Source: a virus. Taken from it: a stretch of DNA of 64,000 bases. The DNA is taken from positions 4,354 through 68,353 of IMG/VR virus record IMGVR_UViG_3300011921_000005; one strand, given 5' to 3'. The notes beneath the pieces were generated by a model. The model saw only the letters and a list, made by a program, of their open reading frames with translations, had not been told where the DNA came from and ran no database searches. Both the position numbers and the translations under genes were made by a program. Below are positions 154 to 32,925 of this stretch, in pieces; positions within the stretch are counted from its first letter, which is position 1, and every line of letters starts with the position of its first letter.

Positions 154-410
154 GCTGGTGTGATGTACTCCCCATATCCTTGAGCAGTCAAGGCATCTGC
201 TGTTTCTTGTGTGATTACAGTCTTAGTGCCACCTAGGTAGAACTCACTAGCGTTGGCAATATCAGTTTGTGCAGGGTAACGATATGAGGAATAGATACCG
301 TTAACTCTTAAGACAGAAACTCCTTTAGTCATTTTATAGCGCGAGAATAAAACTCCACCACCCATTGGGGTTTCTTCGACTGTGGGTGTAGTAAAAATGT
401 ACTGAGTCAT
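150..410 (-). CDS. Conserved 86-aa protein downstream of the capsid gene (probably virion/head-associated)
   Basis: Clear homologue of 39979..40239 in the same position; function inferred from position only. Confidence 0.7.
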   Translation of the reverse strand: MTQYIFTTPTVEETPMGGGVLFSRYKMTKGVSVLRVNGIYSSYRYPAQTDIANASEFYLGGTKTVITQETADALTAQGYGEYITPA

Positions 411-11990: not shown

Positions 11991-13820
11991 TTACGCTGGT
12001 AGTCGTCTGATTAGCGATGCCTGCAAATTAGGTTCGCCTCGCTGAGTTAAACTTGCTAGTAGAGATTGAACATCTGGTCTGCCACCTGGAGCAATCTGTC
12101 CTGGTGCTACGCCAACCATGCGACCTGTTGGACTTAGCCCTTCGGGAAGTTGCCCCTCACCTGGTGGGACCGCGCCTGCTTGCCCGAGAATTTCAGGACT
12201 TACACCCTCAGGGGTCATCTCGCCAGGTGGGGGATTCTGTGGTTTAAACGCATCAGAAACCGCAACCTCAATAGAGGTTCCCTTCTGGCGTTCGTTAATG
12301 ACATAAGATAACTTGTAAAGAATATCCGATGGGTCCTGACCCTGGGAGGCAAGTGCTGGAATAGCCTGTGCATAAGAAGCAATCGCTTGCTTCATGGCAT
12401 CGCGTAGTTCTTCGGTGTCAACCTTCTCTTCTTCTTGTGTTGCATTGAAGGAGAAAGGCATTTGACGGCGAAGGAAGTCGCGAGAAATCAACTTGTCACC
12501 GCGTGCCTGTAGTCCAAAGACCAAAGCACGGTTAGGGTCAAGTCCTGCCATCAAGCCATACTGAACATCAACGGTGTAGTCACCATCAATGTCACGCTTT
12601 GGCTTGTACTTAATGTTGTAAGGAGTACCGTTGCGGACACCGCGTAGGTTCTTCTCTACATCACCAAAAACTTTTTCATCAACCTTAAGTGCAAGGCTGA
12701 GCAATTCGACAAAGCAACGCGCAAACATTGCATGTGCTGTCTTAATCTGTGTATCAAAACCACCCATAAGTGCCTGAACACCACGACCTGTAACGATTGA
12801 AGCATCAATGTTACCTGTACGAGATTCAGGATAGCGTGAGCCTAGGCGTAGTTCGCCTTCGAGAACCTGCTGTTGAGCAAATGTTCCGCCAGGAATTTCA
12901 ATAGATACACGGCGTACATCCTGTGGGCGCTCTGTTTGGATAACTGCATCTGGACCAAGGGCTAAATCTGACACATCGCGTGGAACTACAATAGGAGCCT
13001 GTACTGCCTTAGTCGCTGCCTCAAGAGATAGAAGCGCATAGCGTGCCTTTGCAACCTGAATTGCAAGTACATCATCAAATTGACCGCGTGATTGGTTGTC
13101 AATAGATGGGCGCTGTACGACACGAATCATAACTTCGCCGAGTGAGTTCTTTGCTCGGTCAATTACAAGGTTATTGCGTGACGGGATGAACAAAACATCC
13201 TGGTCTTTGTCGTGATAGCGCACGACTTCAATCAAAGATTGGTCAATGTTCTCATCTTTGTCGTAAATGATGTGGGCATACTCTGGATATGCAGCCATCA
13301 ACTCAGTTACAGACTTCTGAATACGCTGATAGAAATACTGAACTCGACCAAAGCGGTCAATCATTGGGTATGAACCGTAAGAATCTAAGAAGCGGATGCG
13401 TGGCATCTGGGCATCTAGGTCATATTCAACCTGTGCAGGTACGAATCCGTATGTTACATAGCGGTCCGCTGCATTAAACATCTGGGTTTGTAGGTCAGAG
13501 AAGTCAACAATGCCGTTGACAATCTCTTCACGCTTATCAGCCTTCTTGCGTTCCTTCTCAGAAACCATAGTAGGTGAGTTGCAGTTAAATGCGGGTAGTG
13601 GGGCGATAACTTCTGATAGGTCACGCGCTGAAATATCCACCATGTTTGCCACGATAGGGTTCTCGAAAGGACCATCTGGGAACAAATCAGGGTACACATC
13701 GCGCATGCGACCTTTACGAACTAGGAGGACATCTTCCATGCGACTGTCACGCTCGGCAAAAACCTGCTTGACAACGAGGAAGTTATCTTTAATTTCATCT
13801 ACAGTTAGAATCGCACCCAC
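11991..13820 (-). CDS. Portal (head-tail connector) protein, phage X
   Basis: 609 aa directly after terminase; ANMVDISARDLSE, GQFDDVL motifs; homologue 51274..53043. Confidence 0.85.
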   Translation of the reverse strand: MGAILTVDEIKDNFLVVKQVFAERDSRMEDVLLVRKGRMRDVYPDLFPDGPFENPIVANMVDISARDLSEVIAPLPAFNCNSPTMVSEKERKKADKREEIVNGIVDFSDLQTQMFNAADRYVTYGFVPAQVEYDLDAQMPRIRFLDSYGSYPMIDRFGRVQYFYQRIQKSVTELMAAYPEYAHIIYDKDENIDQSLIEVVRYHDKDQDVLFIPSRNNLVIDRAKNSLGEVMIRVVQRPSIDNQSRGQFDDVLAIQVAKARYALLSLEAATKAVQAPIVVPRDVSDLALGPDAVIQTERPQDVRRVSIEIPGGTFAQQQVLEGELRLGSRYPESRTGNIDASIVTGRGVQALMGGFDTQIKTAHAMFARCFVELLSLALKVDEKVFGDVEKNLRGVRNGTPYNIKYKPKRDIDGDYTVDVQYGLMAGLDPNRALVFGLQARGDKLISRDFLRRQMPFSFNATQEEEKVDTEELRDAMKQAIASYAQAIPALASQGQDPSDILYKLSYVINERQKGTSIEVAVSDAFKPQNPPPGEMTPEGVSPEILGQAGAVPPGEGQLPEGLSPTGRMVGVAPGQIAPGGRPDVQSLLASLTQRGEPNLQASLIRRLPA

Positions 13821-15697: not shown

Positions 15698-16231
15698 ACC
15701 GAAACGCAGTAAAGGAAGTTTCGGGTGTATCTCCTAACCGTAGGCGTAGTCTAAACGAAGCCGAAGGTTAGGGCTTCTCTTAGGGTGCGACCCCCAGGGT
15801 CGCTGCTAGTGTGTGGAGAGGCTCCGATTATTTCGCCTCTCACTTATACTATAGGTGTCCAAAAGGTCCTTAGCGGACACTTTTGTCCAAAGTTTTTTTA
15901 CGGGTTTTTTGCCTACGGCAAAAGTGCTGGTCAGAGGCATATAGTGACCCCAGAACTATCAAAGTTATGTGGGTAGATACACATACACATACACACCACG
16001 GATTTAACAATCCTGGGGTGAAGCATGCACGCTCACTCATCTACTTTCCATGCTGGCTTGGCATTGCTTGCAGGGCTAAGCGGTGCAGGCTTGAAGGGCT
16101 AGGGCAGGGCTTGGCTTTCACTCTTGATTCACTCGCGCTCAATATGCCCCGCGCCCCCCGCATTGCTTGCCCGATTGCCCCGCATGCTTGCCGTCTCAAT
16201 ATGTGAGACACCTACCCCCTCACGCTCGCCA

Positions 16232-16247
16232 TGTGATGTTCGTCACA
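16232..16247. promoter_or_regulatory. CRP/GlxR-type box
   Basis: TGTGA-TGTTCG-TCACA, perfect consensus; TTGACA at 16274-16279 downstream. Confidence 0.7.
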
Positions 16248-16273: not shown

Positions 16274-16304
16274 TTGACACCGCATAAACGGCGGGTGTAG
16301 AAAT
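16274..16304 (+). promoter_or_regulatory. Putative early promoter
   Basis: Perfect -35 TTGACA and a weak -10 (TAGAAA) upstream of the first early gene. Confidence 0.5.
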
Positions 16305-16357
16305 CTCTCATGGCTTAAGTCATCGGGGCTTAAGACTCAAGAACAGGAGAACAAGAA

Positions 16358-16993
16358 ATGACCGCAACAACCGCAACCAAGGCGAACAAGGCAAGCAAGG
16401 CAGAAGCACTCTCAACAATCACCAAGGCACTAGAACAGGCTCACGAGATTATCAAGGCAGAAACAGGGGCACCCCGCGCAACTCTTCTCGTGACTCGCGA
16501 CCTCAAGGGGCGCAAGGGTCACTTCACACCCTTCACACCTTGGAAGGCGGGGGAAGAATCTTTCTCGGAAATCGCTTTCAATCTTGAACACTTCACAACC
16601 CCCGAGGAACTTCTCTCAACACTTCTCCACGAGGTGGCTCACTCAATGAATCACATGAACGGGATTGAAGATTGCTCAAGCAACCAATACCACAACAAGC
16701 ACTTTAAGACTCAAGCCGAGGCACTCGGTCTTAAGACACTAGAAATCAAGGGCAAGGGGCACGCCTCAACAGAACTCACCGAGTTTGGCGCTAAGCGATG
16801 GGCTAAGGCGCTTAAGGTGCTTTCAAATGCTTTCGACTTGGTGGCACTTGGTGGCGAATCTGCCAAGAAGAAGGGGCGCAATACGAATCTCCTCAAGGCA
16901 ATGTGTCCATGTGAGCAGGTAATCCGCGCCTCTCGTGGCGTGATTGAAGCGGGCGTGCGTTGCGATATGTGCGGGTGCCAATTCGTGGCTTAA
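16358..16993 (+). CDS. SprT-like zinc metalloprotease-fold protein
   Basis: LLHEVAHSMNH (HExxH plus third His) and a C-terminal CPC...CDMC zinc finger. Confidence 0.8.
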   Translation: MTATTATKANKASKAEALSTITKALEQAHEIIKAETGAPRATLLVTRDLKGRKGHFTPFTPWKAGEESFSEIAFNLEHFTTPEELLSTLLHEVAHSMNHMNGIEDCSSNQYHNKHFKTQAEALGLKTLEIKGKGHASTELTEFGAKRWAKALKVLSNAFDLVALGGESAKKKGRNTNLLKAMCPCEQVIRASRGVIEAGVRCDMCGCQFVA

Positions 16994-17002
16994 GACAGAA
17001 AA

Positions 17003-17077
17003 GCCCCCCGCCCGATAAGTCGGCGCAGGCTCGCGACCTACGGGGGGCACGACATAGGGAGAAAGTCTCCTTATGAC
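17003..17077 (+). ncRNA. tRNA-like mini-element plus 3' hairpin (copy 1)
   Basis: GCCCCCC/GGGGGGC stem, CCGA-TAAG-TCGG arm, AGG-CTCGCGA-CCT arm, then ACGA; followed by CATAGGGAGA-AAG-TCTCCTTATG. Confidence 0.55.
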
Positions 17078-17099
17078 TTAAGACAGGAGAAAGGGGCTA

Positions 17100-17300
17100 G
17101 TGATGACAATCACAGCAACTAACTACAAGGGGCGCGTTTGGACATGCGACCACCACAACGCCAAGATTGAGGCGATGATTAACGAGGGAAAGACAGCCGA
17201 GGCGATGGCTCTCGTTAATGTCTTAAGCCCCAAGAAATCGCGGGGAATCTGCGCCGAGTGTCGGCGCTTATGGCAAGAGACACCGCCAATGAATCGGTGA
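17100..17300 (+). CDS. Small early protein with possible Zn ligands
   Basis: 66 aa, CDHH and CAEC; SD GACAGGAGA. Confidence 0.65.
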   Translation: MMTITATNYKGRVWTCDHHNAKIEAMINEGKTAEAMALVNVLSPKKSRGICAECRRLWQETPPMNR

Positions 17301-17311
17301 CTTAAGACACA

Positions 17312-17379
17312 GCCCCCGCCGATAGGGTACGGATTCACAATCCAACGGGGGCACGAACTCTCAACCTAAAGTTGAGGGT
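17312..17379 (+). ncRNA. tRNA-like mini-element plus 3' hairpin (copy 2)
   Basis: GCCCCCG/CGGGGGC, CC-GATA-GG, GGA-TTCACAA-TCC, then ACGA; followed by CTCTCAAC-CTAAA-GTTGAGGG. Confidence 0.55.
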
Positions 17380-17383
17380 TAGG

Positions 17384-17415
17384 TGTGACCAACATCACAC
17401 GCAAAATGATTGACA
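17384..17415 (+). promoter_or_regulatory. CRP/GlxR-type box plus TTGACA
   Basis: TGTGA-CCAACA-TCACA (17384-17399), 10 nt, TTGACA (17410-17415). Confidence 0.7.
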
Positions 17416-17499
17416 CGCTCAATCACCGCGTGAGAAGGTTACACCAAGCAAGAACACGACAGGCAGAGCGCAGGTTGTGTATTAAGACAGGAGATAAAA

Positions 17500-17820
17500 A
17501 TGTCAGAAGAAGTAAAGACAGCAAGCCAGCAATTCGCAGATGACTATCTGCTAGTGGTTGAAAATGACCGCGAAGGATGGGATGAGATTACTCAAGAAGC
17601 CCGCCGAGTTAAGTACAACATGCCAGAACTCAGCGACTCAATCCGCGAACAGTTCGAGACTCTTGCCTCTCAGGTTATAGAAAACTCAGAAGAAGAAATC
17701 ACAGAGTTTGGCGCTAATGTCTTAAGACAGGTACTCATCGGCATGGGTTCATCAACTTTCGACATCATCGCTCGCGAAGTAATCGCCCGCGATAAAGAGA
17801 CACTAGGAATTGAGGCTTAA
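17500..17820 (+). CDS. Hypothetical early protein
   Basis: 106 aa acidic ORF; SD GACAGGAGA. Confidence 0.7.
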   Translation: MSEEVKTASQQFADDYLLVVENDREGWDEITQEARRVKYNMPELSDSIREQFETLASQVIENSEEEITEFGANVLRQVLIGMGSSTFDIIAREVIARDKETLGIEA

Positions 17821-17823
17821 GAC

Positions 17824-17967
17824 ATGAAAATCACATACGAAATTTATTCAAAAGTCGGCAACTTCGCAGGCTCCAACACAACGGACAGCCTGGCAAAGAT
17901 GGCAGAGATTCGCCACTTACTGGAGAGTAATAACCAAGCCTGCACAATCACAAAGATTGAGGAGTAA
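17824..17967 (+). CDS. Small early protein (47 aa)
   Basis: Hand-translated MKITYEIYSKVGNFAGSNTT...; starts in the TAA-GAC-ATG junction. Confidence 0.55.
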   Translation: MKITYEIYSKVGNFAGSNTTDSLAKMAEIRHLLESNNQACTITKIEE

Positions 17968-17984
17968 TCGGTATTAAGACACAA

Positions 17985-18000
17985 TGTGACTAATATCACA
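17985..18000. promoter_or_regulatory. CRP/GlxR-type box
   Basis: TGTGA-CTAATA-TCACA, perfect consensus. Confidence 0.7.
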
Positions 18001-18079
18001 GCCCCAAATGTTGAAGAAACCGCGGTCATCATGCGACCATTGGGGCACAAGATAAAGCAGGGAAAGTCCCCGCATTATC
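18001..18079 (+). ncRNA. tRNA-like mini-element plus 3' hairpin (copy 3)
   Basis: GCCCCAA/TTGGGGC, GGTC-ATCATGC-GACC, then ACAA; followed by GATAA..GGG-AAAGT-CCC..TTATC. Confidence 0.5.
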
Positions 18080-18107
18080 GGCACGACATCACGACAGGAG
18101 AAAGCAA

Positions 18108-18662
18108 GTGAAGAAAGCAGAACTCAAGGCAGGTGTTGCTTACTATGCAACATCTCAGAACAACGGCATGCAGACTTACAGCACTTCATTGTTTAAGACA
18201 CATAGCCAACACAGTCGCAATCGTTTCTATGTAATCTTTAATGCAGACGGACAGCCAGCCACAGGATACCGAAGCGCAAGCGTAATCTATATGACCAACT
18301 GCAAGACATACGGATTCGACTGCCCAAAACATGGCAAAGACGGCAGACTAAATTGCTATCGCACAGACTTCCGACTCATGGACATCCGCGATGAATACTG
18401 GGCGGTAATCAAGCGCATGCACGAGGCACGCAAGGCACAGCCAACCAAGGACATTAGAGCCGAGCGCCTACGCCGTATCGCCAAGCGCAATCAGGAAAAG
18501 CAGGAAGCACCAATCAAGGAAGAATTCTATCGTGTCTTAAGTCAGATTACAAATAGTTACTGCCACTCTTATGACCGCCTTGGTGGATTCACACCCGCCC
18601 AAATGCAGAAGATTACCGAAGCACTCAAGGCAAGCATGCCATCAGTCCAGGCGGTGGCGTAA
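18108..18662 (+). CDS. Hypothetical early protein
   Basis: 184 aa, GTG start with SD GACAGGAGA. Confidence 0.7.
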   Translation: MKKAELKAGVAYYATSQNNGMQTYSTSLFKTHSQHSRNRFYVIFNADGQPATGYRSASVIYMTNCKTYGFDCPKHGKDGRLNCYRTDFRLMDIRDEYWAVIKRMHEARKAQPTKDIRAERLRRIAKRNQEKQEAPIKEEFYRVLSQITNSYCHSYDRLGGFTPAQMQKITEALKASMPSVQAVA

Positions 18663-18838
18663 TGAGCGACCAGCAATTCAACCTCACTTTCGTAGCCGAC
18701 CACTTCACCCTACACACGACCATCAACGCCGAGACAGAGGAGCAGGCAGAGGCTAACGCCATTGCCAATCTGCAAGACTTCTACGGCATAGACCTTAATG
18801 CAATCAAGTGTTCATTGACCGAGATTGTAGGTGCATAG
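18662..18838 (+). CDS. Small early protein (58 aa)
   Basis: MSDQQFNLTFVADHFTLHTTI resembles MTNYDVLFMHNHFVLVTTV of 57932..58174. Confidence 0.65.
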   Translation: MSDQQFNLTFVADHFTLHTTINAETEEQAEANAIANLQDFYGIDLNAIKCSLTEIVGA

Positions 18839-18913
18839 TATGTCTTACGACACAATCTGCGGTGACTGCCTTATCCCACTATCACAATGCCAACATGCGA
18901 AGGAGTACAAGCG

Positions 18914-19066
18914 ATGAAACTTAATAGACGAGGCAAAAAAGTTAGAGCGATTCTAATTTATGTCTTAATACTTATTGCAATCTATTCAGTATCGGTTGCG
19001 ATGGGCGTGTGGGAGATACCCGAATCATGCCTAGTTGATGGAGTCGGATGCCCAGATGGGTATTAA
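18914..19066 (+). CDS. Small membrane protein (50 aa)
   Basis: MKLNRRGKKVRA followed by a hydrophobic helix ILIYVLILIAIYSVSVAMGVW. Confidence 0.6.
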   Translation: MKLNRRGKKVRAILIYVLILIAIYSVSVAMGVWEIPESCLVDGVGCPDGY

Positions 19067-19073
19067 GACAGAG

Positions 19074-19105
19074 TGTGACCAACAACACATGACAAATGCT
19101 TGACA
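19074..19105 (+). promoter_or_regulatory. CRP/GlxR-type box plus TTGACA
   Basis: TGTGA-CCAACA-ACACA (one mismatch), 10 nt, TTGACA (19100-19105); same spacing as 17384. Confidence 0.65.
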
Positions 19106-19157
19106 CCTACAACCAAATAGATTTAACTACAACTACCAACTAGACAGGAGAAAGAAC

Positions 19158-19301
19158 ATGACAAGACAAACAAGCAAGACAGCAAAGATGACAGTAAGTA
19201 TTAAGACAGAACAAGGTATCGAGTCTTACTTCTTCTATGACATGGAGCAGTACGGCGCAATCCTCAAGGCGATAGACCAAGCACAGATGGGGGGCAACTA
19301 A
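19158..19301 (+). CDS. Small early protein (47 aa)
   Basis: SD GACAGGAGA; stop overlaps the next ATG. Confidence 0.55.
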   Translation: MTRQTSKTAKMTVSIKTEQGIESYFFYDMEQYGAILKAIDQAQMGGN

Positions 19302-19669
19302 TGAGCAACACAACAGGGCATGTAAATGCCAACGGAGAAGGAACAATCATTGTGCCCGTTGAACTAGACCGCAAGGAATTATGGTCAGCGGTTATGGGGT
19401 CAGCATGGGAAACTTTCGGCGACCATTGGCAGGAGTACGAGTACATTAGCGGTGATTGGGATGACCCAACTAGCAAGGTGCGCCTCGTATGCCATAACGA
19501 TAAGTACGAAAATGTTGAGAAGGTAATCACCATTGACGACATTGCCTTGGCGCTACCTATTGCAAACAAGAAAGTTTATATGGACTTATTTGACTTTGAC
19601 CAATACGATGCTATTTGCGGTGATGCAGTCTTACAGGTTGCAGTCATTGGCGATGTGGTATTTGGTTAG
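19301..19669 (+). CDS. Hypothetical early protein
   Basis: 122 aa acidic ORF, translationally coupled. Confidence 0.7.
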   Translation: MSNTTGHVNANGEGTIIVPVELDRKELWSAVMGSAWETFGDHWQEYEYISGDWDDPTSKVRLVCHNDKYENVEKVITIDDIALALPIANKKVYMDLFDFDQYDAICGDAVLQVAVIGDVVFG

Positions 19670-19825
19670 GACTTAAGACATGAACGACACCGAACGCAAG
19701 CAGATACAGCGCCTTGCAAGGCGAGCGCGTGAGCAACGCAACGCCACGACAGACAACGAATCGTTTGACTATTGGCAAGGCGTTATGGAAAACTTACTCA
19801 ACCAACTAAAGACAGGAGATAACAA

Positions 19826-19939
19826 ATGAGCGAACCACAATGGCTGCAAGGTGACGACATAGCCCTTGGTAAAGACGAAGAAGATACCGAACCCAACCCA
19901 CAGTACGACACACTTGAGGAGATGTACGGAGATGACTAA
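19826..19939 (+). CDS. Small acidic early peptide (37 aa)
   Basis: MSEPQWLQGDDIAL...MYGDD matches MSEPQWLEGDDYAL...MYGDEE in 58174..58368. Confidence 0.65.
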   Translation: MSEPQWLQGDDIALGKDEEDTEPNPQYDTLEEMYGDD

Positions 19940-20195
19940 GGAATTAGAAGTTGGTGCATTACTTAAGACAGAAACAGCCTATGACAAGGACATGAACATC
20001 ACCTTTGATGGGCAAGAGATACGAGTTATCCTGCATTGGGATGACCATGATGGCTTTGATATTCAATGGCTTGACCTGGAAGGGCGCTGGATTCAGGCAC
20101 CTGCATGGGCAGATAAGATTGAGGAAGATGGGCAGATGAGCATTGGCTACTTCCTTGATTCACTTGAAGCACACACCAAGAAGGAGACACCATGA
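19932..20195 (+). CDS. Hypothetical early protein
   Basis: Start moved to ATG 19932 (MTKELEVG); acidic, Trp-rich. Confidence 0.65.
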   Translation: MTKELEVGALLKTETAYDKDMNITFDGQEIRVILHWDDHDGFDIQWLDLEGRWIQAPAWADKIEEDGQMSIGYFLDSLEAHTKKETP

Positions 20196-20368
20196 CAGTC
20201 TTGATGGAGTGCCTTGGTTGTGGCACGACAGTAACCAACCCAAGAATAATGAACTACATGTACGAGAAGTGTAACCCTTGCACCGAAAAGCAGAAGGACA
20301 TGGAAGAGAAAGCAATAGATACTTTCTTGCATGCCGAAGCCGAGAGAAAGTTGGACAGTAATGTTTGA
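20192..20368 (+). CDS. Small zinc-finger-like protein (58 aa)
   Basis: CLGC...CNPC; SD AAGGAG. Confidence 0.55.
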   Translation: MTVLMECLGCGTTVTNPRIMNYMYEKCNPCTEKQKDMEEKAIDTFLHAEAERKLDSNV

Positions 20369-20804
20369 TAACTTAAGACAGATTCATCCGCACGCCCGAC
20401 TGTGGATTGTATCCGCCATCGTACTTGCCTTGGTACTTATGCTCAAAGAACCAGCCACCTTCATTGTGAAGCCACCACATGGCAAGGTAATTGCTTACTA
20501 TCAGAACGATTACCAACGCTATGCAATAGACAGACTAACCGAGATGGACATGCTTGAGCAGTATCCATGTCTCTATGAACTATGGATGCGCGAGTCTAAC
20601 TGGCGACCAGAAGCAAAGAACAAGCAGTCTAGTGCAACGGGGATACCTCAGTTGCTTAGTAGTACATGGAAGAATATCAAGGTGAAGCCCACGCGTGATG
20701 GCATGAAGCAGGTTGATGCGGGCTTGCGCTACATCAAACACAGATATGGAAGCAAAGGTGTGTGCCGAGCATACGCCCACCACTTAGCGAAGGGTTGGTA
20801 TTAA
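20361..20804 (+). CDS. Lytic transglycosylase (SLT/lysozyme-like) with N-terminal membrane anchor
   Basis: LWMRESNW catalytic Glu motif, GIPQL, YIKHRYG, C-terminal GWY; homologue 58378..58818. Confidence 0.8.
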   Translation: MFDNLRQIHPHARLWIVSAIVLALVLMLKEPATFIVKPPHGKVIAYYQNDYQRYAIDRLTEMDMLEQYPCLYELWMRESNWRPEAKNKQSSATGIPQLLSSTWKNIKVKPTRDGMKQVDAGLRYIKHRYGSKGVCRAYAHHLAKGWY

Positions 20805-20807
20805 GAC

Positions 20808-21161
20808 ATGAGTAAGTTTCAACCAAAGCACCACCGAGTTATAGCAGTAAGAGGTAGCCTCAATAGATACGGCAAAGGGTTAGTGTCTTATGTCTTAAGA
20901 TATAACGCACGCCTCTGGGATGGGGCAACATGTCGAGGCATAGACACCGATGTCTTTTACCCAGCGCAAGAACTATTTAGTCGTGATGAAGAGCGCATGT
21001 TCAAACGCATGTGTGCCGATTGTCCAGCGATGGATGCTTGCTTGGAGTGGGGCTTAGCCCACGAAAGGTACGGCGTATGGGGTGGCACTACACCACCAAT
21101 GCGACACAAGATGAGAAAGACTTTAGGATTGGCTATCGCAGACCCACAGCACAATCCATGA
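20808..21161 (+). CDS. whiB: WhiB-family Fe-S transcription factor
   Basis: C...MCADCPAMDAC...GVWGGTT signature. Confidence 0.92.
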   Translation: MSKFQPKHHRVIAVRGSLNRYGKGLVSYVLRYNARLWDGATCRGIDTDVFYPAQELFSRDEERMFKRMCADCPAMDACLEWGLAHERYGVWGGTTPPMRHKMRKTLGLAIADPQHNP

Positions 21162-21167
21162 TACAAT
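21159..21167 (+). promoter_or_regulatory. Extended -10 promoter for the anti-RBS hairpin RNA (X)
   Basis: TG-a-TACAAT, 6 nt before the hairpin stem. Confidence 0.6.
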
Positions 21168-21173
21168 AAGGAC

Positions 21174-21215
21174 AAAGCCCGCTAGATTCTCTCCTGTCTC
21201 TGGCGGGCTTTCTTA
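21174..21215 (+). ncRNA. Hairpin with anti-RBS loop; also a likely bidirectional terminator
   Basis: 13-bp stem AAAGCCCGCTAGA/TCTGGCGGGCTTT; loop TTCTCTCCTGTC complementary to GACAGGAGA; TTTCTT tail. Confidence 0.7.
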
Positions 21216-21219
21216 TGTC

Positions 21220-21759
21220 TTAAGAATCTAAATGTAATTCCTTAGCAAGCATGAACACTTCATCACTCAAGTCATCGAGAGTTCCATCGTTATAGATAAC
21301 ATGATTAAACATGTAGTTATCCATCGCATGCTCTGATGCATGACCATTGACAGCGCTATGGTTGTGTCGGTTGATGCGCCAAAGAGAACCACCAAGTTTC
21401 TTGATTGCATCAGCCTCATTAGGAAAGCGCACATCCGAGATAACAACTTTATCTTCTGACTTAATACCTGATAGTGCTATGTCAACCCAAAAGTTTTCAC
21501 CGAACATCTTGCGACCAACCTCAGTACCTAGCACCTGCAATAGACGGCGCACCTCAGGGTCTTTTTTAGTCAAGTCCCAGCCGTAGTCCTCAACGCGATG
21601 TGCTACATGTGTGATGCTATCCAACTTAGGGTTGAGTCTAAGTAAAGCCTCACGCATAGGGTCAGCAAAAGCAATACGGCGGTATCCGTAATTAAGACAT
21701 AACAATTCTGCCGTGCTGTCCTTGCCTGATTGTGCGTATCCACTTAGTCCGATAATCAT
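21220..21759 (-). CDS. Deoxynucleoside monophosphate kinase
   Basis: IIGLSGYAQSGKDS P-loop, FADPMRE, RRLLQVLGTE, VVISDVRFPNEA, HASE. Confidence 0.9.
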   Translation of the reverse strand: MIIGLSGYAQSGKDSTAELLCLNYGYRRIAFADPMREALLRLNPKLDSITHVAHRVEDYGWDLTKKDPEVRRLLQVLGTEVGRKMFGENFWVDIALSGIKSEDKVVISDVRFPNEADAIKKLGGSLWRINRHNHSAVNGHASEHAMDNYMFNHVIYNDGTLDDLSDEVFMLAKELHLDS

Positions 21760-21890
21760 TACCACTCACCACCAATCCACCAAAATCCTAGGTCAATGTT
21801 CCACATCTTAAAGCGTGGGCTTATGTCAAAACCAATACCAAAGCCAGACTTCTTGCCTGCTTGTAGCCAATACTTTCTAATCATCTTCAT
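21759..21890 (-). CDS. Small Trp/Gly-rich protein (43 aa)
   Basis: Hand-translated MKMIRKYWLQAGKKSGFGIGFDISPRFKMWNIDLGFWWIGGEW; fills the gap with coupled start and stop. Confidence 0.6.
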   Translation of the reverse strand: MKMIRKYWLQAGKKSGFGIGFDISPRFKMWNIDLGFWWIGGEW

Positions 21891-22555
21891 TACAAATCCC
21901 TCACTTCTTCTCTCGCTTGTGCATTAGAACTGCGGTGTTGTCGCCATACTGGTTGCTCTCCGCCGAGTCTATCTTGTAACTTAGTCAGCGCTCGCTTGAC
22001 TCTCTTACGCATGGCTTCTTCTGTTGTGCCGTAGGTTTCAGCCAGCGCGCCAAGTTCCATACCACCATCGTCATAGCGTAGGCGTAGCAACTCTCTATCT
22101 GTGTCCGATAGTTTCTTAAGACCTGATGCTACATCTGCTAGCAATGCCATGCGATTGCCACCTTCGCTTGGTTTACTGGAGCGAGATACAAATTCATTAC
22201 TTAAGTCAGGAGTATCTGTCCATCCTATGTGTGACCACACATCGCGCAGTAATTCATGCAATACCTCATGTGAGTAATAGAAAGTATCTGACATAGGCGA
22301 ACGCGAGTAGCGCGAGCGCTCTTTTGCTGCATACTTCTGTGCTTCATTGAAGAAAGTCTTACGCAGTTTGTACTTAAGACTCTCCTCTGCTTCCCATTGT
22401 TCTATCTTGTTCCAATGTTCTAGCGCCCACAAAGACAGGTGTTGGTACAGGTCATCAACAGTTACCAGGTTGCGGTGCATGCGATTACTACGGGTGGCAA
22501 CCTGCCGTGCCACACCATAGATTGTTTCCCATACCTTGTCCTGATTCTCACTCAT
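21890..22555 (-). CDS. Sigma-70/ECF-like RNA polymerase sigma factor
   Basis: Region-2-like DDLYQHLSLW and region-4 HTH (LSDTDRELLRLRY...ELGALAETYGTTEEAMRKRVKRAL). Confidence 0.75.
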   Translation of the reverse strand: MSENQDKVWETIYGVARQVATRSNRMHRNLVTVDDLYQHLSLWALEHWNKIEQWEAEESLKYKLRKTFFNEAQKYAAKERSRYSRSPMSDTFYYSHEVLHELLRDVWSHIGWTDTPDLSNEFVSRSSKPSEGGNRMALLADVASGLKKLSDTDRELLRLRYDDGGMELGALAETYGTTEEAMRKRVKRALTKLQDRLGGEQPVWRQHRSSNAQAREEVRDL

Positions 22556-22955
22556 CTTTAATCTCTGCCTTCTCGTTCTTTAGTTTGCGCATTGCCATAA
22601 GTAAATCATCTACGGTTATGAGATAACCTTTACTCTTATTCGGGGGAATCTCACATGTAATCGCACGACCAAACTCTTTAATGGCGTACAGCACATGGCT
22701 TGTGGGAACCATGAGTACACCCTGCTCTAGTACAAAAGCCCAGTATGCTGCCTCTGTCACCATGACACCAGACTTCTCCCAAGACTTGGACTTCATGTAC
22801 CAGCACTCTACTTCTACATAAAGATTGTTAGTAACCCACCATTTTCTATCTCGCTTTACTTCTACTGTCTTTCCTTGGGTTAACAGTTCTTCTACTAACT
22901 GCTCTCCCTTTCTACCGTATCCAAAGTCTAAATCAAATGATGAGTTCTTTGCCAT
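22548..22955 (-). CDS. Conserved hypothetical protein, possible PD-(D/E)XK fold
   Basis: GEQLV...TVEVKRD...NLYVE pattern. Confidence 0.5.
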   Translation of the reverse strand: MAKNSSFDLDFGYGRKGEQLVEELLTQGKTVEVKRDRKWWVTNNLYVEVECWYMKSKSWEKSGVMVTEAAYWAFVLEQGVLMVPTSHVLYAIKEFGRAITCEIPPNKSKGYLITVDDLLMAMRKLKNEKAEIKDE

Positions 22956-22958
22956 GTC

Positions 22959-23579
22959 TTAAGACCCAACGCGTTTGCGCAAGCCTTCCGCCCCTTCTTG
23001 TAGGTAAACATCATTGACATCACAGTTATCAGGCATGAACACAGGGAACACATTGTCGAGTTCTCTGCTTATGTTCTTAGCCATCTCTCTACCTGCGTTG
23101 TCTCCATCACAGAACAACATAATCTTTTCCCAGTCAGCCAATACCCGTGAGTAAAAAGGTTTCCAGTTGTTTGCCCCTGGTAGCCCGACTGCCGAGAACC
23201 CTACTTGTGTGGCAATGATAGTATCTATCTCGCCTTCGCATATAACAAGCACATCACTATCAGATTCAAGTGCCTTCACATTATAGATATGCGTGCTTGA
23301 CCCAGGGCGTGAGAGATACTTCGGTCCTTGGTCATTGCTTAAGTTACGAAAGCGGATGTCAATCACACCCGATGGGGTGATGTATGGGATAGCCAACTTA
23401 CCTGCGTATGGTTCATGTCCTGTTTCAGGATTCGCCACGAAGCCGAGGCGGAACATACGAGCCGTTTCCTCTGTTATACCGCGACTCGCCAGATACGGAA
23501 GCACCTCTGCTAGGCTTTCTCCGTAGTTCGTTGTTGCTTTCTCCAGTAATTCTCTCTGCGATTTTGACAGCCTCGCCAT
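22959..23579 (-). CDS. DNA primase, TOPRIM part
   Basis: VICEGEIDT, GLPGA and FCDGDNAG motifs; own SD AAGGAG. Confidence 0.88.
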   Translation of the reverse strand: MARLSKSQRELLEKATTNYGESLAEVLPYLASRGITEETARMFRLGFVANPETGHEPYAGKLAIPYITPSGVIDIRFRNLSNDQGPKYLSRPGSSTHIYNVKALESDSDVLVICEGEIDTIIATQVGFSAVGLPGANNWKPFYSRVLADWEKIMLFCDGDNAGREMAKNISRELDNVFPVFMPDNCDVNDVYLQEGAEGLRKRVGS

Positions 23580-23799: not shown

Positions 23800-24148
23800 T
23801 GCTGAGCCTTTGAACAACATAAGCATCACCTATTCCCTTATTACTAGCCTTAATAATCACCAATGGTGATGGTGCCAGCAGTAATCTCTTTGCCAATCGG
23901 TAGTTCTCTGCCTCAACATCTGCCTCACGCAACCAACCTGATAGGTCAATGCGACCATCACGCCGTGGTGCCTTGGCTTCAATCACATACGAATCGTTTA
24001 CTGTCTTAAGAAAGACATCACCAATGTCGTTACGCCCTGCCCGAGGCAGGCGCTGTGCTTCGTAATCTAACTCAACAAACCAATCTGCTAAGTCAATCTC
24101 CCACGCTGCACCTCTACGCTTGTTCGCTGTCTGCGGACTGTTGCTCAC
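23780..24148 (-). CDS. Holliday-junction resolvase (Hjc-like PD-(D/E)XK)
   Basis: KRRGAAWE...DIGD...VIEAK; homologue 63066..63413. Confidence 0.75.
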   Translation of the reverse strand: MSNSPQTANKRRGAAWEIDLADWFVELDYEAQRLPRAGRNDIGDVFLKTVNDSYVIEAKAPRRDGRIDLSGWLREADVEAENYRLAKRLLLAPSPLVIIKASNKGIGDAYVVQRLSNVLPKL

Positions 24149-26622: not shown

Positions 26623-27454
26623 TTGTTTCTCCTAGTTCAGGGTAGAGGTGGGAGTTCTTTCCTTTTACTGCATAGCATGCATGATTGACTGAACAAGTAC
26701 CGCACATAAACCCAGGTTGTGGGATGAAGATATTGTTATCAACTGCAATCTTGAAGCCCTTGACATGGGTAGCCAAGCGACCTTCTGTGTAGTGGTCCAA
26801 CTCTACAGGTTCAGTTAACTCCCCTGTACGAGCCATCCAGTATGCGCCCTTGACTGGGCGGATGCCCATTGTTTTCTCTGTCAAGATTGCGTAAGTACCC
26901 AACTGGGTGTAGGTAACTGGTGCTTTACTTGATGTCTTAATATCAACAACAATCAGTTCACCTTCGGGCGATACCATGAGGCGGTCAAGAAACCCCTTCA
27001 TGCTTACGCCACCAACTTCTGTATTAAGTTCTGTTTCTACAGCCTTGGCTCCGTCAGGTAGTTCGTAGATTGTGTATCCACTTGTCTCACGGAACTGAAC
27101 CCAGAAGTCAAGCATCTTAGGTCCATTGTCTAGCCACCAGCGAGCATCTTCCTTGTTTGGATATGCTGTGGTTTTCTTGCCACCAGCACGGAAGGGCATG
27201 CCATTGTCTGCCAGTTTGTAGTTCTCTGCCCAGCGCTGTTCAAAGACAGCACGAGAATCGAAGGCTGCTCCTGGCTCAAGGGCATCATAGATTTCTGTAC
27301 CCTCGTGCAAAGACTTGCCACCTACTAGCCAGTAGGATGGGTTCTCCTGTATCTTCTGGATACGGGTAAGGTAGAAGGACCAACCACAGTTAAGCCATGT
27401 TGACATGGCGCTGTGGGAGATATAGTTCTTCCCTGTCTTTTCTTCTAGTGTCAT
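26615..27454 (-). CDS. PD-(D/E)XK exonuclease, RecB/Cas4-like with Fe-S cysteines
   Basis: ISHSA...C, KGFLDRL...VDIKTS, QLGTYA, C-terminal CGTCSVNHAC. Confidence 0.85.
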   Translation of the reverse strand: MTLEEKTGKNYISHSAMSTWLNCGWSFYLTRIQKIQENPSYWLVGGKSLHEGTEIYDALEPGAAFDSRAVFEQRWAENYKLADNGMPFRAGGKKTTAYPNKEDARWWLDNGPKMLDFWVQFRETSGYTIYELPDGAKAVETELNTEVGGVSMKGFLDRLMVSPEGELIVVDIKTSSKAPVTYTQLGTYAILTEKTMGIRPVKGAYWMARTGELTEPVELDHYTEGRLATHVKGFKIAVDNNIFIPQPGFMCGTCSVNHACYAVKGKNSHLYPELGETNE

Positions 27455-28036: not shown

Positions 28037-28051
28037 TGTCTTAAAACTGTA

Positions 28052-28249: not shown

Positions 28250-28762
28250 TTATGACTTGAACACTGGCTTGCCGAAGCCAACCACTGTTACTGCCTGTGA
28301 CTTGCGTAGTTTGGAACCGTTCTTCTTCTTGAAGGCTCGTACCTTAAGACAGACTTGACCGCCGTTACGCTGGTTGCCTTTCTTATCTGGTGCTGTGTTG
28401 CCTTCAATACATGTGACTGTGCCATCGCCATTGTCTTTAACAACAATGCCAACATGGGAGATGCGGTCAACGCCATCGTTAGGGAAGTCAAAGAACACGA
28501 TGTCTCCTGGTAGTGGTGTAGCGGTATCGCTTGCCAACTCCCATTGACCTTTCTTTTCAAATGCCTTGGCACCTGCAACTGTTGATACGCAGTTAGGAAT
28601 CTTTAGTCCTACTTCGTTAGCACACCAGTTAACAAAGGAGCCACACCATGGCAAGAAGTTTGCCTTAGTAAAAGCACCGTACTTAGTTTCGTTATCCTTT
28701 GGACCTTCGATAACTCCGAGTTCACCCTTTGCTACTGCAATAAAGTCTGCTCTTTGTCCCAT
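28250..28762 (-). CDS. Endolysin, CHAP domain
   Basis: PWCGSFVNW (Cys), SHVGIV (His), IEGNT. Confidence 0.9.
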   Translation of the reverse strand: MGQRADFIAVAKGELGVIEGPKDNETKYGAFTKANFLPWCGSFVNWCANEVGLKIPNCVSTVAGAKAFEKKGQWELASDTATPLPGDIVFFDFPNDGVDRISHVGIVVKDNGDGTVTCIEGNTAPDKKGNQRNGGQVCLKVRAFKKKNGSKLRKSQAVTVVGFGKPVFKS

Positions 28763-32896: not shown

Positions 32897-32925
32897 GATT
32901 CTCCTTGTGTCTTAATAAATAATAA

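Follow-up and report, generated by a model that had tools for sequence, protein, structure and literature searches.

Why is one eight-letter word written again and again through the early genes of a phage, and what reads it? The window analysed here is the whole 64,000-nt stretch of IMG/VR virus record IMGVR_UViG_3300011921_000005 (positions 4,354 to 68,353), in which a preliminary description had reported an extreme density of the octamer TTAAGACA in the early region of phage X. That density is borne out. The window carries 34 copies, compared with 3.32 +/- 1.93 (maximum 9) in 100 dinucleotide-preserving shuffles, and 21 of these (15 plus, 6 minus) lie within 16731-21223, where a first-order Markov model predicts ~0.20. 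All 33 positions previously listed are exact matches, and one further copy at 44694 (-) brings the window to 34. A codon-shuffled null had also been proposed: when the codons of the 16 ORFs were shuffled synonymously 2000 times and the DNA between genes was kept unchanged, 8.1 copies arose on average and never more than 13. As the observed 21 exceed every shuffle, the intragenic copies are not a by-product of codon usage and the excess persists. The extended form of the word is [C/A]TTAAGACA, with a weaker mirrored left half, TGWM. No word comparable to this array was found in the early block of phage Y.

The sites belong to a word-linked block that runs from the first site through the genes for an SLT transglycosylase, a WhiB-like protein and a dNMP kinase. 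The block and its leader are laid out as follows; every line without another description is an exact TTAAGACA copy.

16274..16303 (+): putative host-type promoter-like element of the block, from inspection (TTGACA 16274-16279, 18-nt spacer, TAGAAA 16298-16303)
16315..16322 (+): near-cognate TTAAGTCA in the first-gene leader
16330..16337 (+): near-cognate TTAAGACT, 5' of the first-gene SD
16358..16993 (+): first block gene, SprT-like metalloprotease (HEVAH motif) with C-terminal zinc ribbon; Pfam SprT-like 2.5e-6, phrog_6361
16731..16738 (+): within the SprT-like gene, codons cTT AAG ACA
16990..16997 (+): its TAA (16991-16993) is the SprT-like stop; a GC-rich hairpin follows
17078..17085 (+): intergenic, directly 5' of the GGAGAAAGG SD of ORF 17100-17300
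17219..17226 (-): antisense, within ORF 17100-17300
17302..17309 (+): 1 nt past the TGA stop of ORF 17100-17300; a hairpin follows
17482..17489 (+): directly 5' of the GGAGA SD of ORF 17500-17820
17718..17729 (both strands): perfect 12-bp palindrome TGTCTTAAGACA, two overlapping copies within ORF 17500-17820, as previously claimed
17817..17824 (+): stop/start junction; TAA ends ORF 17500-17820, last A begins the ATG of ORF 17824-17967
17974..17981 (+): intergenic, past ORF 17824-17967
18193..18200 (+): within ORF 18108-18662
18533..18540 (-): antisense, within ORF 18108-18662
18961..18968 (-): antisense, within ORF 18914-19066
19063..19070 (+): TAA is the stop of ORF 18914-19066; upstream of a second TTGACA promoter-like box
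19201..19208 (+): within ORF 19158-19301
19673..19680 (+): junction; after the TAG of ORF 19301-19669, last A begins the ATG of ORF 19680-19829
19963..19970 (+): within the ORF ending at 20195
20373..20380 (+): near the N-terminus of the SLT transglycosylase gene, TTA AGA CAg
20801..20808 (+): SLT/WhiB junction; TAA is the SLT stop, last A begins the whiB ATG
20891..20898 (-): antisense, within whiB
21216..21223 (-): sense to the dNMP-kinase gene, TAA is the kinase stop; abuts a bidirectional hairpin (about 21174-21212)
21692..21699 (+): antisense, within the dNMP-kinase gene

The element at 16274..16303 was omitted by a consensus promoter scanner because the final base of its -10 is A. The same pair of near-cognate sites precedes the SprT-like gene in two relatives, G001 and G002. 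Beyond the block, copies are sparse:

22955..22962 (-): TTAAGACATG junction, stop of the primase TOPRIM gene and start of ORF 22548-22955
24002..24009 (-): within the RusA-like gene, sense
26933..26940 (-): within the exonuclease gene, sense
28037..28044 (-): intergenic, sense; a hairpin follows
28344..28351 (+): endolysin gene, antisense
32398..32405 (+): 655-aa gene, antisense
32908..32915 (-): 5' of the AAGGAG SD of the 655-aa gene (30929-32896)
308..315 (+): structural module
9997..10004 (+): structural module, 1894-aa gene, antisense
12738..12745 (-): portal gene, sense

Nine of the 21 block copies stand in spacers or at the edges of genes. Five of these nine supply, with their TAA, the stop codon of the gene before them, and three copies (TTAAGACATG at 17817, 19673 and 20801) lend their final A to the following ATG; the junction at 22955 on the minus strand is a fourth of this kind. 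Boundary and intergenic copies are all sense relative to the flanking gene and intragenic copies are split 6:5, such that the reported bias toward the direction of transcription holds for the former and not for the latter; part of it is to be expected from a coding strand richer in A than in T. Copies may be placed in spacers where room permits, there overlapping stops, abutting an SD or sharing the A of an ATG, with the remainder written inside genes at a cost in codon or residue choice. In close X-type relatives, approximately two-thirds of sites lie directly before an SD or ATG, which would also fit a signal at the level of RNA or translation.

Do relatives each own a different octamer, as had been asked? 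They do. Among 80 terminase relatives only three words occur, CTTAAGAC(A), GTTTAGAC and the palindrome GTTTAAAC, and the arrays are always found within 6-10 kb adjoining the terminase gene, upstream, with nearly none in structural genes. The words are exact: GTTTAAAC relatives hold 38 copies against 0.29 expected, and words one mismatch away occur at the background rate (8 vs 5.9). When the conserved region from the dNMP kinase to GT was aligned with MAFFT, shared columns read GTTTAAAC, GTTTAGAC or, in X-type phages, A/CTTAAGACA according to group; the site at 21692 (alignment column 498) is GTTTAAAC or GTTTAGAC in relatives. Other aligned sites have decayed in X-type phages. Whole arrays are therefore rewritten letter by letter, in place, and the finding of each phage's own word in the same columns points to a trans-acting reader co-evolving with its sites. 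GTTTAAAC is the commonest form of this iterated-octamer system, and the word of X is a local re-spelling of the GTTTAAAC array, carried together with an SprT-like zinc-ribbon gene by many aquatic phages.

The early block is extremely mosaic among relatives, and in one pair of an X-type and a GTTTAAAC phage (L082 and L075) homology stops where the first site stands. Such observations could suggest that the boundary word supplies micro-homology for swapping small early gene cassettes between phages; 23% of early-block homology breakpoints in X-type phages lie <=10 bp from a site, against 8% of random positions. However, this result is confounded, as sites coincide with gene boundaries, which are the mosaic joints, and shared words lengthen BLAST hits. 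Moreover, known phage recombinases need more than eight bp, and conserved intragenic sites and concerted rewriting are left unexplained. A study of Cluster O phages likewise found no recombination-linker role for their repeats (PMC4351075). We regard such a role as very improbable.

The placement at gene starts raises the alternative that the word acts in mRNA just 5' of the ribosome-binding site, as proposed for the SAS elements of Cluster K: as a translation enhancer or coupling element, as the target of an RNA-binding protein, or as the target of an RNA from the hairpin after whiB, whose loop is complementary to AGACAGGAGA, including 5 letters of the word. Besides the uniformly sense boundary sites of X, an ATG follows at once after 13% of non-redundant X-type sites (background 2%) and an SD with start codon after 17%; about 16 of 23 sites in G001/G002 take the form TTAAGACAGGAG-N5-8-ATG or TTAAGACATG, and Venkman, a cultured phage of OM43, has 6 GTTTAAACATG junctions. 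However, boundary placement is expected of any DNA word given spacers of 10-30 nt, the GTTTAAAC sites of relatives show no enrichment before ATG or SD, and half of the X copies are intragenic. Sites flank terminator hairpins on both sides, and orthologous sites are kept inside replication genes, where GTTTAGAC phages carry the reverse complement in the mRNA. The intragenic copies in both directions, together with the replication-gene sites of GTTTAGAC phages, antisense relative to those of the early block, argue for action at the DNA rather than the RNA level. A signal in RNA is thus unlikely.

Which protein, then, reads the sites? We looked for alignment columns that separate TTAAGACA from GTTTAAAC phages.

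20361..20804 (+): SLT transglycosylase, present in all dialects; 26 separating columns
20808..21161 (+): WhiB-like protein, present in all dialects; 11 separating columns and a 4-5 aa insertion in TTAAGACA phages
21220..21765 (-): dNMP-kinase-like P-loop protein, last gene of the block; 16 separating columns
21890..22555 (-): sigma factor (regions 2 and 4), first gene beyond the word-linked block; 0 separating columns

No such column exists in the primase and its zinc-finger part, RusA, GT, g135, TerL or the portal either. These data exclude replication and structural proteins as the reader, and they exclude the sigma factor, one of the binders suggested in the preliminary description, as a determinant of specificity. 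WhiB, also suggested there, is physically linked to word type and has no other support. Given that TTAAGACA and GTTTAAAC share a G+C range, that SLT, WhiB and the dNMP kinase have 11-26 separating columns and that X-type/GTTTAAAC homology breaks off at the first site, a phage-encoded reader with its gene in or near this block is favoured.

These comparisons bear on the idea that the word is a minimal promoter for a phage-modified RNA polymerase, with one start per small gene. Exact 8-mer promoters have models in the T4 late promoter TATAAATA and in the T7 group, whose promoters change concertedly with their polymerase. The words tolerate no mismatch, X-type relatives have about one site per gene with an SD or ATG immediately 3', and X encodes both a sigma factor and a WhiB-like protein. 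In the cultured Arthrobacter phage KeAlii, which has 23 GTTTACAC sites (0.2 expected), 19 of them co-oriented with genes, four sites lie directly 3' of the -10 in host-type TTGCGY-N18-TAGACT promoters, between it and the start site. However, no residue of the sigma factor tracks the word, no phage RNA polymerase was found and no conserved -35 or -10 partner was found within 30-40 nt. The commonest word is palindromic, there are 30-38 copies per 10 kb, many of them intragenic and in either direction, and sites stand directly 5' of terminator hairpins. We therefore consider a promoter quite unlikely.

The first gene of the block supplies a further candidate, absent from the preliminary description. 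Genome-wide, the SprT-like gene is the only X-type-specific gene; it is present in 9/9 TTAAGACA loci and was undetected by BLAST (E 1e-3 to 1e-6) in non-TTAAGACA loci. The first gene of every dialect nonetheless encodes a homologous C-terminal zinc-ribbon module, the only part that this gene retains in non-TTAAGACA loci, and in GTTTAAAC phages it is reduced to a conserved stand-alone protein of ~55 aa. Loci fetched by this module alone nearly all have an array when G+C is below about 57%; among high-G+C phages with SprT-like genes, the array was missing in 5/6 tested. About half of the out-of-family loci fetched via GTTTAAAC clusters have no SprT-like gene in the available fragment. Venkman, sharing little else with X-type phages and their relatives, encodes an SprT-like protein and carries 34 GTTTAAAC copies (1.4 expected); KeAlii also encodes one. 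No simple correspondence links zinc-ribbon residues to the word, and several different hairpin sequences accompany GTTTAAAC. A monomer of ~55 aa is small for eight asymmetric bp, and a symmetric dimer leaves GTTTAGAC unexplained.

Taken together, the sequence comparisons favour, with about even confidence, a stoperator-like array of DNA sites for a phage-encoded reader whose identity, binding and effect we infer: it is probably the SprT-type zinc ribbon. Exact copies of the word would be written among the non-structural genes, which in X means the small-gene block diverging from the terminase gene. There they would act on double-stranded DNA through a trans-acting, phage-encoded reader whose gene travels with the block, most likely the zinc-ribbon module of the first-gene SprT-like protein. 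A one-letter shift in its specificity would entail the rewriting of every site where it stands (GTTTAAAC <-> GTTTAGAC <-> CTTAAGAC). Promoter-proximal and intra-operon occupancy most likely controls or shuts down early and middle transcription; alternatively, the sites may tether a DNA-dependent protease to that part of the genome. The analogy drawn earlier with the stoperators of L5/Bxb1 is the best available. The array is dispersed, its short, exact sites keep to non-structural genes, and the word varies between relatives and changes concertedly. KeAlii, whose word is related, adds a link to transcription through its 19 of 23 co-oriented sites and the four that abut the -10 of promoters. The analogy is imperfect, as known stoperator arrays fall far below the density in X of one site per ~230 bp, half intragenic. 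It also counts against this reading that X yielded neither an HTH repressor nor an integrase. Our literature search found no published description of this system.

All-or-none 8-mers, comprising a classical 8-bp palindrome and asymmetric one-letter variants, resemble enzyme targets more than operators. The sites could thus be recognised by a DNA-modifying or nicking enzyme of R-M-like specificity that marks or interrupts the early part of the genome. A DNA methyltransferase is among the proteins of Venkman, the dNMP-kinase-like protein and glycosyltransferase of X are hallmarks of modified-DNA phages, and the kinase clade is word-linked. However, X lacks a methyltransferase or site-specific nuclease, its g135, RusA and exonuclease do not track the word, and the restriction to non-structural genes is left without explanation, making an enzyme target very unlikely.

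Finally, the word might be read by the host, either as a Chi-like protection of the first-entering DNA end from host exonuclease or as a site for some other host factor, both of which had been suggested. An exact 8-letter word is dense in the 7-10 kb adjoining the probable genome end, placed before the terminase gene by analogy with Beephvirinae, and in GTTTAGAC phages 19/25 sites point one way. Known Chi, KOPS and SRS words are G-rich, and the main word here is palindromic. Moreover, TTAAGACA and GTTTAAAC phages span the same G+C range, and GTTTAAAC is common to phages of Actinobacteria and of a betaproteobacterium, which makes a host factor unlikely. Intragenic orientation is mixed, giving the Chi-like idea no support, and a host-read word is the most improbable of these readings. 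Neither KeAlii nor Venkman has its sites near the genome ends, and the one-sidedness of GTTTAGAC sites in coding regions follows a synonymous TTA-to-CTA path.

The exact octamer of phage X, TTAAGACA/CTTAAGAC (hereafter the word), is strongly enriched. The 64-kb window holds 34 copies of TTAAGACA or its complement, against 3.3 ± 1.9 in dinucleotide-preserving shuffles. Between 16731 and 21223 there are 21 copies of TTAAGACA where a first-order Markov model predicts ~0.2, an array of 21 copies within 4.9 kb or 1 per ~230 bp. The coordinates listed in the preliminary description were all confirmed by exact match, and one copy, at 44694 (-), was absent from that list. Moreover, the enrichment persists against a codon-shuffled null. 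Synonymous-codon shuffling of the 16 ORFs of the X block (the early-gene stretch dense in copies), with spacers kept unchanged, gave a mean of 8.1 copies and a maximum of 13, compared with the real 21. Therefore, the intragenic copies are not an effect of codon usage.

The window belongs to a 76.6-kb IMG/VR contig that unites two related genomes of ~38–40 kb each. On this contig (G000) phage X extends up to ~33 kb and a second phage, Y, begins at ~39.5 kb; the two are diverged genomes of one phage family, and terminase, portal and a giant ejection-like protein each occur twice with ~45% identity. Rather than a single virus, the contig probably represents a chimeric assembly or a joined pair. 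The features of X needed here are as follows.

5537–11221, minus strand: virion/ejection-like protein, 1894 aa, matched by phrog_10618 only, Pfam match absent
13829–15697, minus strand: terminase gene of X, from which the structural genes extend leftwards
16358–21161, plus strand: small-gene block of X, rightward genes, SprT-like protease first
16358–16993, plus strand: SprT-like gene of X, Pfam SprT-like, HEVAH motif, C-terminal CxC...CxxC

Behind the SprT-like gene lie 13 small ORFs of 41–184 aa with no known function; genes for an SLT transglycosylase and a WhiB-like protein complete the block. The replication genes (dNMP kinase, sigma factor, split primase, RusA, glycosyltransferase, DnaB-like helicase and exonuclease) converge on it from the right. 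By terminase, the nearest isolates are Streptomyces podophages of the Beephvirinae (50% identity), and because the ends of Beephvirinae genomes lie just before the terminase gene, the X block is probably at one physical end of the genome. No integrase or partition gene was found among the X ORFs scanned. Scans of ORFs with Pfam, PHROGs and NCBIfam gave no gp71-like HTH repressor, in agreement with the initial impression that no repressor is obvious.

Within the X block, 9 of the 21 copies lie in spacers or at gene boundaries, and every boundary copy is sense-oriented; 11 are intragenic, with directions split 6:5. The TAA within the word is the stop codon of the upstream gene in 5 X copies, and the last A of the word is the A of the next ATG in 3, with a fourth such junction at 22955 on the minus strand. 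A GGAGA Shine-Dalgarno (SD) directly follows 2 copies, and 2 are followed by GC-rich hairpins. The X-type relatives, which have the same word, carry 20–23 sense and 3–4 antisense sites. Since ~two thirds of the sites in close X-type relatives are positioned exactly before an SD or ATG, the main rival to recognition as DNA is that the word acts at the RNA or translation level. Compared with the Cluster K sequences discussed below, the word precedes an SD or ATG in only ~30% of X-type sites (ATG next in 13%, SD plus start codon next in 17%), itself contains no SD, and elsewhere among relatives lies mostly away from starts. With spacers of 10–30 nt, any DNA word would be expected to fall at stop/start junctions and before an SD. 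Extended by its flanks, the X word approximates TGWM-TTAAGACA-GRA, a partly mirrored 12–18-mer; its mirrored half, TGWM, is only partial, whereas relatives with the word GTTTAAAC have perfect palindromes. We rejected TTAAGTCA and TTAATACA as separate variant sites, as they are mirrored left halves read on the opposite strand.

Relatives of X spell the word differently, and we refer to each spelling as a dialect. We fetched 80 loci with the terminase and tallied their 8-mers over the 6 kb lying upstream of its gene. Every locus with sufficient flank carries one of three words, so that relatives do have octamers of their own, as the preliminary description had wondered: the X-type word, with 14–21 forward and 2–5 reverse copies per locus; GTTTAGAC; or the palindrome GTTTAAAC, with 18–26 copies in its loci. 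The words occupy 7–10 kb adjoining the terminase gene and structural genes are almost without copies. Sites of GTTTAAAC have symmetric flanks and are all-or-none, with 38 exact copies against 0.29 expected and one-mismatch neighbours at background. Moreover, TTAAGACA and GTTTAAAC span the same G+C range (40–50%), independent of terminase similarity, which argues against a host-determined word and thus against a host factor as the reader (the putative protein recognising the word), one of the binders first suggested. A scan of genome contigs with a WhiB alignment gave only two distant actinobacterial matches; the word occurs just once in the one genome inspected, which has a high G+C content.

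The dialects correspond to one another site by site. In an alignment of the conserved dNMP-kinase-to-glycosyltransferase region from 12 phages, six columns hold GTTTAAAC in one phage group and GTTTAGAC in another at the same positions. X-type phages carry ATTAAGACA or CTTAAGACA in two columns and show decayed forms, e.g. GTTCAAAC or GCTTAAAC, in the remaining ones. The alignment fixes an ungapped register across dialects, N-T-T-W-A-R-A-C, in which CTTAAGAC can be superimposed gap-free on GTTTAGAC and GTTTAAAC at orthologous positions, fitting the form GTTTANAC or a near variant. These columns show that dispersed sites changed together, one letter at each step, and concerted change of this kind is a hallmark of sites co-evolving with a reader that acts in trans. 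In the replication genes of X-type phages, a few intact GTTTAAAC relics stand beside decayed copies (L082, L048 and L078; columns 1026, 1286 and 3518), as if a backbone of GTTTAAAC type had acquired the TTAAGACA early block.

At the replication-gene sites of GTTTAGAC phages the coding strand reads xGT CTA AAC, a synonymous spelling of xGT TTA AAC, and the one-way bias of sites in these phages may be a coding constraint. The same sites are the reverse complement of most early-block sites, which favours recognition of double-stranded DNA over that of mRNA and speaks against a role in RNA or translation. A -1 frameshift at U_UUA_AAC was dropped, because neither GTTTAGAC nor CTTAAGAC is a slippery sequence and the sites fall in every frame. 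Readings of the word as a promoter, enzyme target, recombination linker or Chi-like element each explain some features but fail on others. Chi, KOPS and DNA uptake sequences are selected exact words of 8–12 letters with one-letter dialects between lineages. They are read by the host and spread over whole chromosomes, whereas the X word is specific to the phage and keeps to a single functional module. Nor does the fixed direction relative to a DNA end that a Chi-like signal, one of the roles first put forward, would show appear here: intragenic copies run both ways, the main dialect is palindromic, and the direction bias of GTTTAGAC phages follows the synonymous codon path. For the recombination linker, an analysis of breakpoints at sites was positive but confounded.

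Which protein might read the word was approached through alignment columns separating TTAAGACA from GTTTAAAC phages. There are none in the alignments of sigma, primase, its zinc-finger part, RusA, glycosyltransferase, g135, terminase or portal, and all of these were rejected as reader, including the sigma-like protein that had been named as a candidate binder. This bears on the promoter reading. The promoter/polymerase pairs of the T7 group and the T4 late promoter TATAAATA are likewise exact short words repeated genome-wide that change with a phage reader, an RNA polymerase or sigma-like protein; however, they are strictly one-directional and intergenic, whereas in the X system sigma does not vary with the word, and many of the sites are palindromes or lie inside genes. 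Separating columns were found in SLT (26), WhiB (11) and dNMP kinase (16), and homology between one X-type and one GTTTAAAC phage ends at the first site, ~350 nt from the terminase start. Taken together, these columns and the homology break define a word-determining block that runs from the first site through the dNMP kinase. WhiB, also proposed as a binder, is indeed word-linked by its 11 columns, but its basic C-terminus has no word-following pattern and the odds of its being the reader appear low. The dNMP kinase (21220–21765) forms two clades, X-type plus GTTTAGAC phages and GTTTAAAC phages, with the same alignment columns separating X-type and GTTTAGAC phages each from GTTTAAAC phages. 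The two clades also differ in the sixth letter of the word, G versus A, a coincidence that could be plain linkage.

Across complete genomes, the only X-type-specific gene is the SprT-like gene. The C-terminal zinc-ribbon module of its product is common to the first gene of the other dialects, which is a 181-aa SprT-like protein with the module in GTTTAGAC phages and a conserved stand-alone zinc ribbon of ~55 aa in GTTTAAAC phages (L035:8999-9163 (-) and homologues). The ribbon sequence is conserved within each dialect and particular to it; no residue code linking ribbon to word is evident, and several different ribbon sequences accompany GTTTAAAC. Pfam, PHROGs and NCBIfam gave no DNA-binding domain in the small early ORFs of X and its GTTTAAAC/GTTTAGAC relatives, although in the relatives they recognised amidoligase, GATase and DUF3846. 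For an AlphaFold model of the 55-aa ribbon (pLDDT 76), generic zinc ribbons were the only PDB matches (best E 0.28). A search of the viral collection with the zinc-ribbon module alone yielded 77 loci. The array is present in nearly all of them with G+C below ~57%, distant lineages included, although the SprT link is partly built into the search; high-G+C phages carrying the SprT-like gene are mostly without an array. When loci outside the family were collected purely because they carry three clustered GTTTAAAC copies, about half had no SprT-like gene within the fragment. Neither the gene nor such an array was found in phage Y, an internal negative control on the same contig, or in Immanuel3, a Streptomyces phage of the closest isolates' group by terminase. 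In GTTTAAAC phages the ~55-aa ribbon is followed by genes for an amidoligase (PF12224), a class-II GATase and DUF3846, which X-type phages lack. The heptamer GAACTAG, frequent in Y, was set aside as ordinary coding sequence.

The best-supported reading is that the copies would form an array of DNA sites for a sequence-specific phage factor encoded in the same block; the SprT-type zinc ribbon is the likeliest candidate. This putative reader would act on early and middle genes in a stoperator-like way; alternatively, the sites would tether a DNA-dependent protease to those genes. We tentatively entertain a fuller model, as a possibility to which we give rather less than even weight. Here, a SprT-type zinc ribbon, fused to a DNA-dependent protease or free-standing, would be addressed to phage early and replication DNA by an exact 8-bp word iterated 20–40 times. 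Its specificity would be re-set by few mutations and the whole array then rewritten; the system would be widespread, and X a two-step derivative (GTTTAAAC > GTTTAGAC > CTTAAGAC). Were this true, reader–site co-evolution would be directly testable with three natural pairs. Moreover, if the SprT-like zinc ribbon is the reader, the very common phage annotation 'SprT-like protease' would gain both a function and a DNA address.

The module search also led to two cultured phages. OM43 phage Venkman (L180, Methylophilales, MT375522.1) has 34 copies of GTTTAAAC against 1.4 expected, 30 of them within the first 14.6 kb, the non-structural part, and six GTTTAAACATG stop/start junctions between small genes. 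In BLAST comparison with these actinophages, Venkman gave, besides the SprT-like gene, only a helicase/primase match of ~22% identity. Arthrobacter phage KeAlii (L181/L297, NC_071031.1), which encodes a serine integrase, uses a fourth word, GTTTACAC/GTGTAAAC, with 23 copies genome-wide against 0.2 expected. Its array is asymmetric, with 19 of the 23 sites sense and co-oriented with genes. At four conserved TTGCGY-N18-TAGACT promoters, one of which precedes the SprT-like gene, a site follows the -10 hexamer immediately and so separates it from the start region. The same words occur in phages of abundant freshwater Actinobacteria, marine OM43 and soil Arthrobacter and, as Venkman and KeAlii are both cultured, the question is open to bench experiments.

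Only a few groups of cultured actinophages are known to have dispersed site arrays, and most of these (Cluster O, Cluster K) are without a known binder or function. The X array works like the Cluster A, O and K systems and is a member of none. Cluster A mycobacteriophages have operator/stoperator arrays bound by L5 gp71 and Bxb1 gp69 (PMC6550527, PMC3029335). As in X, dozens of copies of one short site run through transcribed regions, often in tiny spacers overlapping stop and start codons, and motifs differ among relatives, with syntenic sites following the phage's own motif (PMC6550527). The related KeAlii array is asymmetric and co-oriented with transcription, whereas in X the boundary copies are sense and the intragenic ones split, and the GTTTAAAC dialect is palindromic. 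The stoperator comparison drawn at the outset therefore holds for dispersed copies and relative-specific motifs. However, the X ORFs scanned include no HTH repressor of the gp71 kind, no integrase and no parABS, the candidate reader being the SprT-type zinc ribbon, and because it departs from Cluster A in repressor and lifestyle X does not belong to the Cluster A-type stoperator systems. Moreover, sites of the X system are 8–12 bp rather than 13 bp, far denser, confined to the non-structural part and half intragenic in either direction, and the commonest dialect is a perfect palindrome.

Cluster O mycobacteriophages carry 17-bp dyad repeats, TGTTCGG-N3-CCGAACA, 34 of them in Corndog, whose function and binder are unexplained and most of which lie away from promoters (PMC4351075). 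Both systems consist of invariant repeats with dyad symmetry, which is only partial in the X word and perfect in GTTTAAAC, and their phages show no obvious sign of being temperate; about one third of Cluster O repeats are intragenic and they are denser towards the non-structural end, similar to the X system. The X word differs in sequence and length, and the Cluster O study (PMC4351075) described no dialects or concerted rewriting and proposed no gene link, whereas the X system has dialects and rewriting. The start-associated sequences (SAS/ESAS) of Cluster K mycobacteriophages (PMC3203893) resemble the X system in their restriction to non-structural genes (nearly complete for the word in X and relatives), single direction, position a few nucleotides from start codons, occasional inclusion of the upstream stop codon and, for ESAS, a consensus varying by subcluster. 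However, SAS includes the SD and stands 3–7 bp before the start in nearly all copies, whereas 11 of 21 X copies are intragenic; owing to this difference in position, X is not an SAS member. Full-text literature searches returned no paper mentioning GTTTAAAC arrays in these phages or in Venkman, and the iterated-word/SprT system is not described in any paper so found.

A single phage family here offers three natural spellings, in-place rewriting of orthologous sites and a candidate reader confined to one small block, which makes it a clean system for studying joint change of a DNA-binding specificity and dozens of its targets. The window contributes a dialect more divergent than any seen before, evidence of rewriting column by column and the exclusion of sigma as reader.

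Lastly, we note further elements around the block. A promoter/terminator consensus scanner gave no result above shuffles. CRP/GlxR-type palindromes, TGTGA-N6-TCACA, at 16232–16247, ~17385–17400 and ~19075–19092, lie beside TTGACA promoter-like boxes of the early block and would be a second regulatory motif separate from the word. The first ~345 nt upstream of the terminase gene (15700–16050) are 82–90% conserved across all dialects and hold GTCTAAAC in a hairpin (~15740–15775) regardless of the phage's own word, perhaps as a packaging or leader signal. A bidirectional hairpin after whiB (~21174–21212; also after whiB in the related genomes G001, G002 and G003-G005) has a loop complementary to AGACAGGAGA, an RBS context private to X-type phages; in GTTTAAAC/GTTTAGAC phages this hairpin differs and its loop matches GGACTGGAAC-type leaders.
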